Made by a program: the position numbers. A DNA stretch of 45,637 nt, from the IMG/VR virus record IMGVR_UViG_2529292910_000009, positions 1-45,637 of that record. One strand, given 5' to 3'. This DNA comes from a virus (Duplodnaviria; Heunggongvirae; Uroviricota; Caudoviricetes). Shown one piece after another: positions 36,001 to 39,000 of this stretch. Position 1 is the first letter of the stretch; each line of letters starts with the position of its first letter.

Positions 36001-39000
36001 TGAGGAGGATAGATGGCGTTCACTGACCTTGAATATCAAGCGGTCAAAAAAGAAGTTCACCAATTCATTGAAAGCATAAGGCCGCCTGAACATATCCGCA
36101 ATGAACTGGATATTGTTTATAGCATCAATGACCAAACGATAGATATCGGCGAACAGCGCCCCGTGTGGCAGGGCAACCCAGGTGAAACAAACATCCTGCC
36201 ATCAGCAAGAATCAAGTACATACGTTCTCTGGATAGATGGAAAATCTATTGGATGCGGAAGGATATGAAATGGCATCAGTACAGTACTGAACTTTCGCTG
36301 ACTGATGCGCTTGAGCTTGTGCGTGCTGACCCGGATTGCTGCTTCTTCGGATGAGTGAAGAGACGTTTGGATGATGGATGGTCGCAGAGATGCGGCCTGA
36401 TTCTAAAATAGGATATAAAAAATGAGAATACTAGGTGTTAGAGCGGCGCCCAAAGTTACATCTTTTGTTGTATATTGCACTAATGAGTCTGCACTCAAAT
36501 GTGTTGATGTTATTAAAATACCTTCGACCTTAGACACACCAGAAAAATTAAAGTATGTGAGAAATAACATCCTCGACATTCTTAATTTATATAATGTTGA
36601 ATTAGCTGCCATACGCGTTACTGAATCAAACTCTGATAATCTTAGCATTGACCGCCTTTATATAGAAGCTGTTATTCAAGAAGCATTTTCAAGCAGTGAT
36701 GTAAGAAAATATTACACTATTAGAAAATCTGGCATGAAATCATCATTGAACCTAACAGAGATCGAGTATAAAGAAATATTGAAGTCACACCGCAATATAA
36801 ATGGAATCGATAATTCTGGTTTTACAACTGAAACAAATGAAGCTGTTTTGGCTGCTCTATCTGCGGAGGTAAGGGGATGCTAACTCCATACAAAAGAGCT
36901 GATGTAGAATTCGAATGGATTAGTGATCTAGAAGAACAGGGTTGTTTTTCAAAAGTATATCTGGCTCATGACAGACACCTAGCTCATGACTTGGTGATTA
37001 AAGAAATAGAAAAAAAAGAAACACTAACCACGACGACTACTTTAATGAAGCAAGGCTTCTCTATAAACATGCACATCCAAATATTGTGCAAGTTCAGTAT
37101 GCTGCTCAATGTGAGAGCAATATCTATATAGCCATGCCATTTTATCATAATGGTTCGCTAAACCAATTAATGAAAAAAAATAATCTTACAAGCAGGGAGA
37201 TAATACGGTATTCCATTCAATTTTTAAGTGGACTTTATCATATACACTCAAAAGGTCTTATGCATTTTGATATAAAACCTAATAACATTATGATATCAAA
37301 CAGAAATGAGGCCATGCTATCTGACTTTGGATTATCTCAGTTAGTCAATGAGGAATCGAGAGCTGCGCCTGAGTTTGGATATCATTTTCATGTGCCACCG
37401 GAATATTTTTCTTTATCAACAAATGATTATAATTTCACATATGACATATATCAGGCAGGATTAACCATATATAGAATGTGTGTTGGACATGATAATTTTG
37501 AAAGAGAAAGATCTGCATTTAGCACGATTGAACAACTCAGAGAGTCGATAATTAATGGCTGCTATCCATTAAAAGAGTATCCTCCCCATATACATAAAAA
37601 ATTAATAACAATAGTGAACAAATGCATTCATGTAGATCCAAATGAAAGATATCAATCCGTACTAGATGTACTAAACGATCTCTCAGCTATAAGTGATGGC
37701 GTTCTTGACTGGCGTCTACAGATGACGAAACCAACTAACGGCACATGCGAATGGCAAAAAAAGTCTGGGGACGCTATACTGTCTATAGTTTTTGACGCAG
37801 AAAATTCGTCTACTACTGGTTTTCGTTTATACGATGATGGGCGGAAAAGGCGTGCTACGAACTTAACAATATCCTCAGGATGTACCCCTACAAAACTGTA
37901 TAGGTTATTAAAGGATAACTGATCATGAAAAAGCGCGAGGAAGTAAGCAAGCTGCCTCGCAGACGTGATGCAGCATTAGCGGTTCCCTACAAAAAAGATG
38001 AGTTCATAAGCCCTTCTGATGACAAAAAATTTTCAAAGGCGAAAAGTTTTACATCTACATCTCTAAAAGATAAATACTTTAAAATCTAGCCCGGCCTCAG
38101 CGCCGGGTTTTCTTTGCCTCACGATCCCCCACCTAAAAAAACATAACTCATTGTATTTATTGATGTAACTCGCTAAACCATGCAGTTCTGATCCCTGCCG
38201 CATAACCTTCATCAGCCACATTTTCAAAAATAAATTTCCTTATATATCAGAATCATACTTCGTAGAGTTAATAAATCACCAAAATTCGTACAAATAGTTC
38301 TTAATAATGTCGAACTATTGGTTCATTATTATCGTCATCAGCAGGACGCATTACTCACCAGGGCGGTGAATATACAACGATTCGAATATGAATCTACGGC
38401 GCTGACAAAGCGCAATAACCAAAGTGAACTTTGGGGTGTGGTGAAGGGTTCATGGACGGGAATATGTCGCACGTAAAGCGGCGAGGCCTGTGGGACTATT
38501 GCCGAATTGAAGTAGGCCGAAACAGGTCGAAATGGGTCTCCCACCTACCACACCACCAAAGTTCATCAGGAGGTCTATATGACACGCAGAACTCAGTTCA
38601 AAGGCAATTCACGTTCTCGTCGTCGTGAGCGTTTAAAGGCAAAGGCATTAGCTAACTGCGTACTGGCCCGCGAAGAAGCAATAAGTTCAGAAGTATTACA
38701 CCGCCCTACTCTAAGCAGAGCGCAGATTCAGGCTAAAGGTACTCACGAAACGCCTGAGCGCATAGAAGACGCTAAGCCAATTAAGTTCATGGCACAGGAC
38801 GTGATCTGGCAACAGAAAGAATACAGACGCAATCTGGAGCGAGCAGCCATTGTGTACGCGAATGAGTTTGGACATAAGCAACCAGAAACTGGTGTATGTC
38901 TTCCAAACGTAGCCATTTACGCGGCAGGCTACCGGAAATCAAAACAACTGACGGCGAGGTGATTGATGACCACGCCTTCAGTTTTGCCGCAAAAGTTATG

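Follow-up and report, generated by a model that had tools for sequence, protein, structure and literature searches.

The sequence analysed here is the whole 45,637-nt stretch of the Caudoviricetes virus record IMGVR_UViG_2529292910_000009 (the window), which carries, downstream of its cI repressor gene, an operon with the order pRM, cI, DUF3024, R, stk, S and tM. In this operon, R specifies a 153-aa RuvC-fold protein, stk a eukaryotic-like protein kinase, and S a basic protein of 54 aa, and tM is an intrinsic terminator; these features are all encoded on the + strand. We consider it likely that the AT-rich 1.7-kb segment at positions 36376–38089, which holds R, stk, and S, constitutes a self-contained, horizontally mobile, three-gene abortive-infection module. 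The locus is the already known and annotated cI-stk operon of phage 933W, and Stk is the published exclusion kinase of that phage. The locus itself thus adds nothing new, and it is the comparative result that may matter: R, the kinase (K), and S are found side by side in distantly related bacteria and amid unrelated genes, a pattern typical of a three-gene unit that is autonomous and moves horizontally. A fuller reading, in which exclusion by the 933W Stk is the work of an obligate R-Stk-S system that has spread horizontally over at least five phyla and is absent from defence catalogues, and in which R would be an Arg-for-Asp pseudonuclease serving as sensor or scaffold and S an inhibitor, pseudo-substrate, or first substrate of the kinase, appears to us evenly poised between right and wrong.

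The conserved linkage of the three genes was seen from both R and the kinase. A search of 5.8 billion proteins seeded with R returned 75 relatives with identities down to 42%. The genomic contexts examined for these relatives were those of Klebsiella, Proteus mirabilis (three prophage backbones), and the alphaproteobacterium Terasakiella, and in every one of them a Pkinase gene specifying 345–349 aa overlaps or abuts the 3' end of R (the kinase gene of Terasakiella is cut by the end of the contig). In most of the full-length contexts, a called gene for 53–59 aa follows the kinase gene. These units lie behind four different types of repressor gene, and DUF3024 is absent from them. The scan seeded with the kinase, in which one genome per species and peptide patterns specific to the Stk clade were used, and which is silent on more distant kinases, detected 69 Stk-related loci, three of which were set aside as generic kinases (22–25% identity) or a partial match. 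The remaining 66 kinases share 35–61% identity with Stk, most of them along almost their entire length, C-terminal domain included, and are distributed in Alpha-, Beta-, and Gammaproteobacteria, Bacteroidota, Ignavibacteria, Clostridium, Paenibacillus, and one cyanobacterium. An open reading frame (ORF) of the R family was identified immediately upstream of the kinase gene in all 66 loci (hidden Markov model E = 1e-26 to 1e-77). In 33 loci the stop codon of R and the start of the kinase gene share 8 nt, in 12 others they share 1–7 nt, and the gaps in the rest do not exceed 12 nt. The kinase stop codon is followed, in most of the full-length loci and at a distance of no more than a few tens of nucleotides, by the start of a basic ORF of ~49–75 aa, and 61 loci contain a downstream small ORF of 40–80 aa after exclusion of dubious or overlong calls.

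Genes upstream of these units vary widely, i.e. S24 or HTH repressors (a minority), DNA methylases, a UvrD helicase, integrase, resolvase, and housekeeping genes, and no fourth conserved gene was found among the Stk-family loci. Because the flanking genes vary in this way, the three genes appear to move as a unit. The R family is small, accounting for 431 of the 50%-identity clusters in a set of 1.84 billion representatives, and no R-kinase fusion was found in the best 150 of the 431 R representatives, all of which are stand-alone proteins of ~150–165 aa. In the preliminary description of this locus, the unknown proteins encoded around the kinase were suggested to form a multi-gene exclusion system with it, with co-occurrence across prophages as the check. 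Conserved synteny bears this out for the 153-aa and 54-aa genes, R being adjacent to the kinase in every locus and S in nearly all, but not for the 113-aa DUF3024 gene, which is missing from ~60 loci that carry the triad.

These data bear directly on the proposal that the kinase acts alone, like Stk2 of Staphylococcus and PD-T4-6 of Escherichia coli UMB0949, and that the 153- and 54-aa genes are unrelated passengers of a moron. Both of these systems likewise employ a Pkinase-fold effector in an abortive-type defence, and in the case of PD-T4-6 a single ORF of 436 aa, cloned with ~200 bp of flanking sequence, is enough for protection. Stk, too, is treated in the literature as the exclusion factor (PMC3681748, PMC6356687), and R can be interrupted by IS1, as in E. 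coli SHP24. Against this stand the adjacency of R and the kinase in 66 of 66 loci and the nearly constant presence of S, both of which hold across several phyla and amid unrelated genes, the frames overlapping or abutting, as well as the fact that independently recovered R proteins always adjoin a kinase. Since unrelated genes would not be expected to stay linked over such distances, we regard a lone kinase with passengers as very unlikely. PD-T4-6 also differs from Stk in its architecture, being protective as a lone ORF, whereas Stk is flanked by R and S. Stk matches the PD-T4-6 models of PADLOC with E = 1e-37 to 1e-15 over the kinase domain only, and the mad6 model of the MADS system in PADLOC also matches this domain. 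The assignment of Stk to PD-T4-6 was rejected on the basis of the flanking R and S genes.

The R gene of SHP24 (NZ_CP104788) contains a copy of IS1A at ~1200–2250 of the compared stretch, and stk (348 aa) and the 54-aa gene downstream are intact in this strain. SHP24 is thus a natural R-null allele of the cassette.

The kinase itself is an unambiguous member of its family. The Stk of 933W, or the product of the window gene with one A restored to an interrupted A-run (see below), matches Pfam Pkinase (PF00069) with E = 2e-46 and 158.8 bits, the gathering cutoff being 31.7. In 67 members of the K family, K42, E58, the H130-x-D132-x-K134-x-x-N137 motif, D150-F-G, P175-E176, and R258 are invariant, and the ~75-aa C-terminal domain contains conserved Trp residues. 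Because the full set of catalytic residues has been kept, the members of this family are judged to be active kinases.

In the window, by contrast with 933W, the kinase motifs are divided between two frames. The stk gene is split by the loss of one nucleotide from an A-run (A8 at 37011–37018; A9 in 933W) into ORFs of 84 aa (36877–37131) and 278 aa (37086–37922) in different frames. The 84-aa ORF specifies residues 1–47 of Stk, including the Gly-loop and Lys42 of the VIK motif, followed by an out-of-frame tail, and the 278-aa ORF specifies residues 71–348, including the catalytic loop, the DFG and APE motifs, and the C-terminal ~75-aa domain; it matches phrog_2361 ('serine-threonine kinase') with E = 1.6e-112. 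The kinase had been described as one ORF in the preliminary description, and this does not hold for the window copy. Active Stk would not be expected from this copy, because the Gly-loop and Lys42 lie in one frame and the remaining core in another.

A 101-nt probe spanning the A-run matched all 39 stk-bearing phage records at 99.0% over 102 nt, i.e. the A9 allele. The same probe matched 224 complete E. coli genomes, and the 60 matches listed were all at 99.0%, none at 100%; the nearest genomes, ES5, 1504D004, and 1604D011, show 99.9% identity over 2402 nt, compared with 2401 nt of the query. As judged from these comparisons, the A8 deletion is private to the window sequence among complete records, including the 60 E. 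coli matches listed. Exact-pattern scans of the viral_contigs set found neither the A8 nor the A9 allele and are uninformative on allele frequency. The 84-aa product, out-of-frame tail included, matches phrog_14833 from end to end (positions 1–84 of 84, E = 8e-61), and therefore the same slip has been deposited before; an exact look-up of the 84-aa frameshift product found none on record. The A8 allele may represent a genuine null mutation, an error in sequencing the homopolymer, or a site prone to slippage, and transcriptional slippage on the A-run could restore the frame in some transcripts. Unless A8 is a sequencing error or is bypassed by slippage, the module in the window is probably inactive. 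The allele predicts a lysogen that does not exclude HK97-type phages, again with the exception of a sequencing error.

Alignment of the interval with the immunity region of phage 933W revealed 99.3% identity over 2401 nt with co-linear genes and 16 differing positions (substitutions or indels), including the change from A9 to A8. About 38 other Stx-phage records match the 2.4-kb interval at 99.3–99.4% nucleotide identity. The gene order in 933W, i.e. cI, L0084, L0083, stk (348 aa), L0081, and tM followed by nutL and N, could be mapped one to one, and the genes, their order, their overlaps, and the terminator are also alike in phi24B, Min27, and Stx2-converting phage 86. L0084 and L0083 are labelled in 933W as 'DUF3024 domain-containing protein' and 'RuvC-like Holliday junction resolvase', respectively. 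The likeness is confined to this region, the rest of the window being another lambdoid mosaic genome; the best phage record for positions 30000–45637 is PhiR5_2, with 66% coverage and 97.8% identity.

The biology of the 933W operon has been described in part. In the work of Friedman et al. (2011), the trigger of Stk was reportedly gp68 of HK97, and the outcome was reportedly tyrosine phosphorylation and cell death. Stk of 933W has been described as a eukaryotic-like kinase that is produced by the prophage, shows little activity, if any, in uninfected cells, and, once activated upon infection by HK97, excludes this phage by abortive infection (PMC3681748, PMC6356687). The stk gene is driven by pRM and is expressed only in stable lysogeny (PMC3430580). 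In two-dimensional gels of phi24B lysogens, Riley et al. (2012) detected the proteins P2 and P3, which are 100% identical to NP_049484 (DUF3024) and NP_049483 (RuvC-like), respectively, and quantitative PCR restricted both to cultures in which the prophage was stable; the P3 transcript was present far above the cI transcript in lysogens, for which the authors had no explanation (PMC3342100). RNA sequencing placed stk and 'res' among the genes whose expression was not changed by induction (PMC4651098). Expression from the lysogen downstream of cI, as had been predicted, was thus already on record (PMC3342100, PMC3430580). The 113- and 153-aa proteins, which had been introduced as unknown, were both already annotated and had both been seen in lysogens, whereas the suggested partnership with the kinase is retained for the 153-aa protein.

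R-stk-S occupies the same slot as rexA-rexB of lambda and hex of 434, i.e. co-transcription with cI from pRM and a terminator before pL, and the logic is also alike, in that rexAB is expressed in the lysogen and aborts infection by heterologous phage (PMC6356687, PMC3564112). The two systems have no relation in sequence or fold, and the effector is a eukaryotic-like kinase in Stk and of the ion-channel type in rex.

R (36422–36883; L0083 or ST933Wp23 in 933W, 'res' or P3 in phi24B) has an RNase H-like RuvC fold, and only comparison of folds was informative for this protein. Its match to Pfam RuvC (PF02075) covers the N-terminal 65 residues only and scores 14.2 bits, below the gathering cutoff of 22.2, and searches of PDB by sequence (for R and the 113-aa protein) and with the R profile yielded only chance-level matches. 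Identity between R and the RuvC resolvase is 12–15%. The invariant residues of the R family are G5, R7, P10, P34, P40, L43, R47, D52, E68, R78, E82, E87, and E140. The first strand of R reads ILGVRAAP, where RuvC has ILGIDPGS, and Arg7 is invariant in alignments of both 68 and 42 R-family sequences. In an hhalign comparison of the R profile with a hand-entered sequence of E. coli RuvC, which is weak (1.8% probability), R7 stands opposite Asp7. Asp7 is indispensable in RuvC. The remainder of the catalytic tetrad (Asp7, Glu66, Asp/His138, and Asp141) is not reproduced in R either: no equivalent of Asp138 is conserved in the R family, and E68 and E140 alone are conserved nearby. R is best regarded as a RuvC-fold protein that is probably no canonical resolvase, because an invariant Arg occupies the position of the indispensable Asp7, and the label 'RuvC-like Holliday junction resolvase' overstates what is known of it. 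R also differs from RuvC in being encoded always beside a kinase gene and never with ruvAB.

These features must also be weighed against the possibility that R is the effector, namely an active, non-canonical RuvC-type nuclease that cuts phage or host DNA once it has been phosphorylated by Stk, which would then serve as sensor or transducer. The invariant acidic residues D52, E68, E82, E87, and E140 leave room for a non-canonical nuclease site. However, the first catalytic Asp, which is essential in RuvC, is an invariant Arg, the position equivalent to Asp138 is not conserved, the score against Pfam RuvC falls short of the gathering threshold, and published work ties the lethal phenotype to the activity of the kinase (PMC3681748). 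We consider a nuclease effector unlikely.

In the mechanism that we favour, Stk would be the effector, and R, a probable pseudonuclease, would act as a sensor or a dimerizing scaffold that licenses autophosphorylation of the kinase. RuvC is an obligate dimer, and dimerization-driven trans-autophosphorylation is the usual switch for kinases of this kind; it is for these two reasons that a scaffold function of R is proposed. The most conserved stretch of R is the helix at residues 76–92 (R78, E82, V84, I85, E87, F89, S91, and S92), and this counterpart of the RuvC dimer-interface helix is a candidate interaction surface. The cue perceived by R might be a phage protein or branched DNA, such as recombination or replication intermediates. 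S (37925–38089; L0081 or ST933Wp21 in 933W), which starts 2 nt past the stk stop codon, would be a pseudo-substrate or inhibitor that silences the kinase or, alternatively, its first substrate. This role is proposed because S is small, basic, and translationally abutting and has one conserved Arg and one conserved Tyr. The 54-aa protein matches phrog_4063 (E = 2.5e-39) and no family outside PHROGs; members of its family share an N-terminal 'K-N..Y..R-E/A' element and a C-terminal 'G-Y-hydrophobic' element, which contains the conserved Tyr, and are rich in Lys and Arg (22%).

Growth-arresting kinases that are restrained by one or more small co-encoded partners are found in HipBA, HipBST, and the KKP system of Pf prophages, and the resemblance to R-Stk-S is an analogy of logic only. 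KKP is also prophage-borne and defensive (PMC11341870). The partners in these systems are unrelated, no phosphatase, HipB, or HipS being present in R-Stk-S, and the HipA kinase fold is distant. A reading of S as the antidote of a toxin-antitoxin-type pair is circumstantial and suggested by analogy, S being small, basic, and abutting, and Stk being nearly inactive in uninfected lysogens.

Several points weigh against the roles assigned to R and S, which are proposed from conservation, fold, and composition. Unless it has a polar effect on stk, the IS1 insertion in R of SHP24 argues against an indispensable antitoxin role of R. By extension of the same weak hhalign alignment (1.8% probability, with a hand-entered RuvC sequence), R65 would stand opposite Glu66 of RuvC, and the invariant acidic residues mentioned above make a non-canonical nuclease site possible.

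The boundaries of the module were defined by comparison with phages that carry other genes in its place. In the Stx2a phage Stx2_PV12-16, cI is the same and the DUF3024 protein is identical, but the sequences cease to be homologous after window position 36375 and align again from 38090, exactly at the terminator; between these points, R, stk, and S are replaced by a 285-aa NYN-domain gene (2990–3847 of the compared stretch). Salmonella phage ST160 shares only 35994–36364 (DUF3024) and 38086–38118 (the terminator) with the window and carries, between DUF3024 and the terminator, a gene for a 357-aa ParA-like ATPase (2981–4054 of the compared stretch). The NYN-domain and ParA-like proteins have only weak PADLOC matches (HEC-09/NYN and PDC-M28B, respectively). 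DUF3024 is present in 144 phage records and stk in 39. Judging from the break-points at 36375/36376 and 38089/38090 and from these record counts, DUF3024 and tM are backbone, and 36376–38089 is exchangeable cargo. The break-points agree with the step in G+C content, which is 0.357 across 36376–38089, 0.44–0.45 in the flanks, and 0.488 in the whole window; the G+C content of DUF3024 matches the backbone and not the cassette. The AT-richness that had been noted, and the horizontal acquisition that had been read from it, are both substantiated, the latter by the recombination break-points. The slot between DUF3024 and tM looks like a cargo hotspot in the immunity regions of lambdoid and P22-like phages.

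The 113-aa DUF3024 protein (36013–36354; L0084 or ST933Wp24 in 933W, P2 in phi24B) matches Pfam DUF3024 with 108.7 bits (cutoff, 24.9) over positions 2–112 of 112 and PDC-S43 of PADLOC with E = 7e-42 over positions 1–115 of 115. Its gene directly precedes R-K-S in three lineages: E. coli 933W, Proteus penneri, in which an S24 repressor gene, DUF3024, R, K, and S follow one another in the order of 933W, and Erwinia aphidicola, in which the four genes are not in an immunity region. This recurrence and the status of the protein as a PADLOC defence candidate would fit a five-part system, in which DUF3024 is a sensor or partner of the kinase along with R and S. The gene is nevertheless lacking at ~60 other triad loci, among them the prophages of Klebsiella and Proteus mirabilis, it can be found alone (e.g. 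in a comparable context in Rahnella) or beside different cargo, and it lies outside the exchanged segment with a backbone-like G+C content. We regard this alternative as highly improbable. Because ~60 triad loci lack it, DUF3024 is not taken as an integral member of the R-Stk-S module; it is better described as a separate, cI-linked gene and a candidate single-gene defence determinant (PDC-S43). In the searchable literature, DUF3024 was met in one paper, which mentions it in passing. Use of a common insertion hotspot, or some loose link in function, may account for its position beside R-K-S in some lineages.

As to the layout of the operon, cI (35245–35952), which encodes a repressor of the LexA/S24 family, corresponds to 933W cI (NP_049485; 'LexA family transcriptional regulator' in PGAP). 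It is the first gene on the pRM transcript and represents context outside the cargo. All four genes downstream, i.e. the 113-aa, 153-aa, kinase, and 54-aa genes, have family matches, and they are considered real genes and not chance ORFs because of these matches and because P2 and P3 have been seen on two-dimensional gels. Several details given in the preliminary description were confirmed: the 113-, 153-, and 54-aa ORFs and both kinase frames are co-oriented with cI, the 153-aa ORF (stop at 36883) and the start of the kinase ORF (36877) overlap by 7 nt, and a terminator separates the unit from pL and N. This terminator, tM (38088–38115), lies at the end of the pRM transcript and upstream of OL/pL, and it consists of a G+C-rich hairpin at 38088–38109 followed by a T-run (fold energy, -14.5 kcal/mol; z = -2.3). 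Its position coincides with the 933W annotation 'tM; putative terminator for pM transcript'.

The 67-nt gap between DUF3024 and R (36355–36421) contains, 7 nt ahead of the R start codon (ATG), a good Shine-Dalgarno sequence, AGGA. A promoter scan detected no sigma-70-like site on the + strand of this gap, and the overall count of such sites for the region matches that expected from shuffled sequences; for these two reasons, no cassette-internal promoter is claimed. A promoter-like site was observed inside stk at 37267–37294 on the + strand (TTGATA, 16 nt, TATGAT; 10 of 12 positions). It is probably a by-product of the AT-rich composition, given that the regional number of sites equals the shuffle expectation.

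Beyond tM, the N gene is located at 38579–38962 on the + strand. It is followed by an ORF for 238 aa (38963–39679) with a Cys-x2-Cys ... Cys-x2-Cys arrangement, where 933W has a 156-aa gene. On the other side of cI, direct repeats of 30–49 nt were identified at 33509–33594 and 34281–34433; two copies are 100% identical and 90 nt apart, and diverged copies lie 750–770 nt off. These repeats sit within and just upstream of a 360-aa ORF on the - strand (33168–34250), which itself contains a (Gln-Glu) repeat. They resemble iterons and possibly mark the replication origin of a replication module different from that of 933W.

With regard to the novelty of the three-gene architecture, no PADLOC model matched R or S, and no report tying stk to both partner genes was found in the searchable literature, which is weak evidence as this literature includes few subscription journals. 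As for a defence pair of a kinase and a RuvC-like protein, only the unrelated CapK/CapS (with an anti-sigma-type kinase), KKP, and the T7 kinase were found in the literature. The architecture, found neither in PADLOC nor in the searchable literature, is thus offered as a modest, testable lead.

The comparison defines a cargo slot between DUF3024 and tM in lambdoid immunity regions, for which two alternative cargoes, an NYN-domain gene and a ParA-like gene, were seen. Among the Stk-family loci, which range from those of E. coli phages to those of Bacteroides, Clostridium, and cyanobacteria, the kinase is accompanied by R throughout and by S in nearly all. If the proposed reading is true, defence annotation tools label such loci as single-gene 'PD-T4-6-like' systems and miss the partners, and a repurposed, probably inactive resolvase fold would represent a sensor or scaffold of a new type, serving a eukaryotic-like kinase of bacteria. 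If the three genes do act together, the mechanism of an abortive-infection system known for ~20 years would have been investigated without regard to two of its three components.

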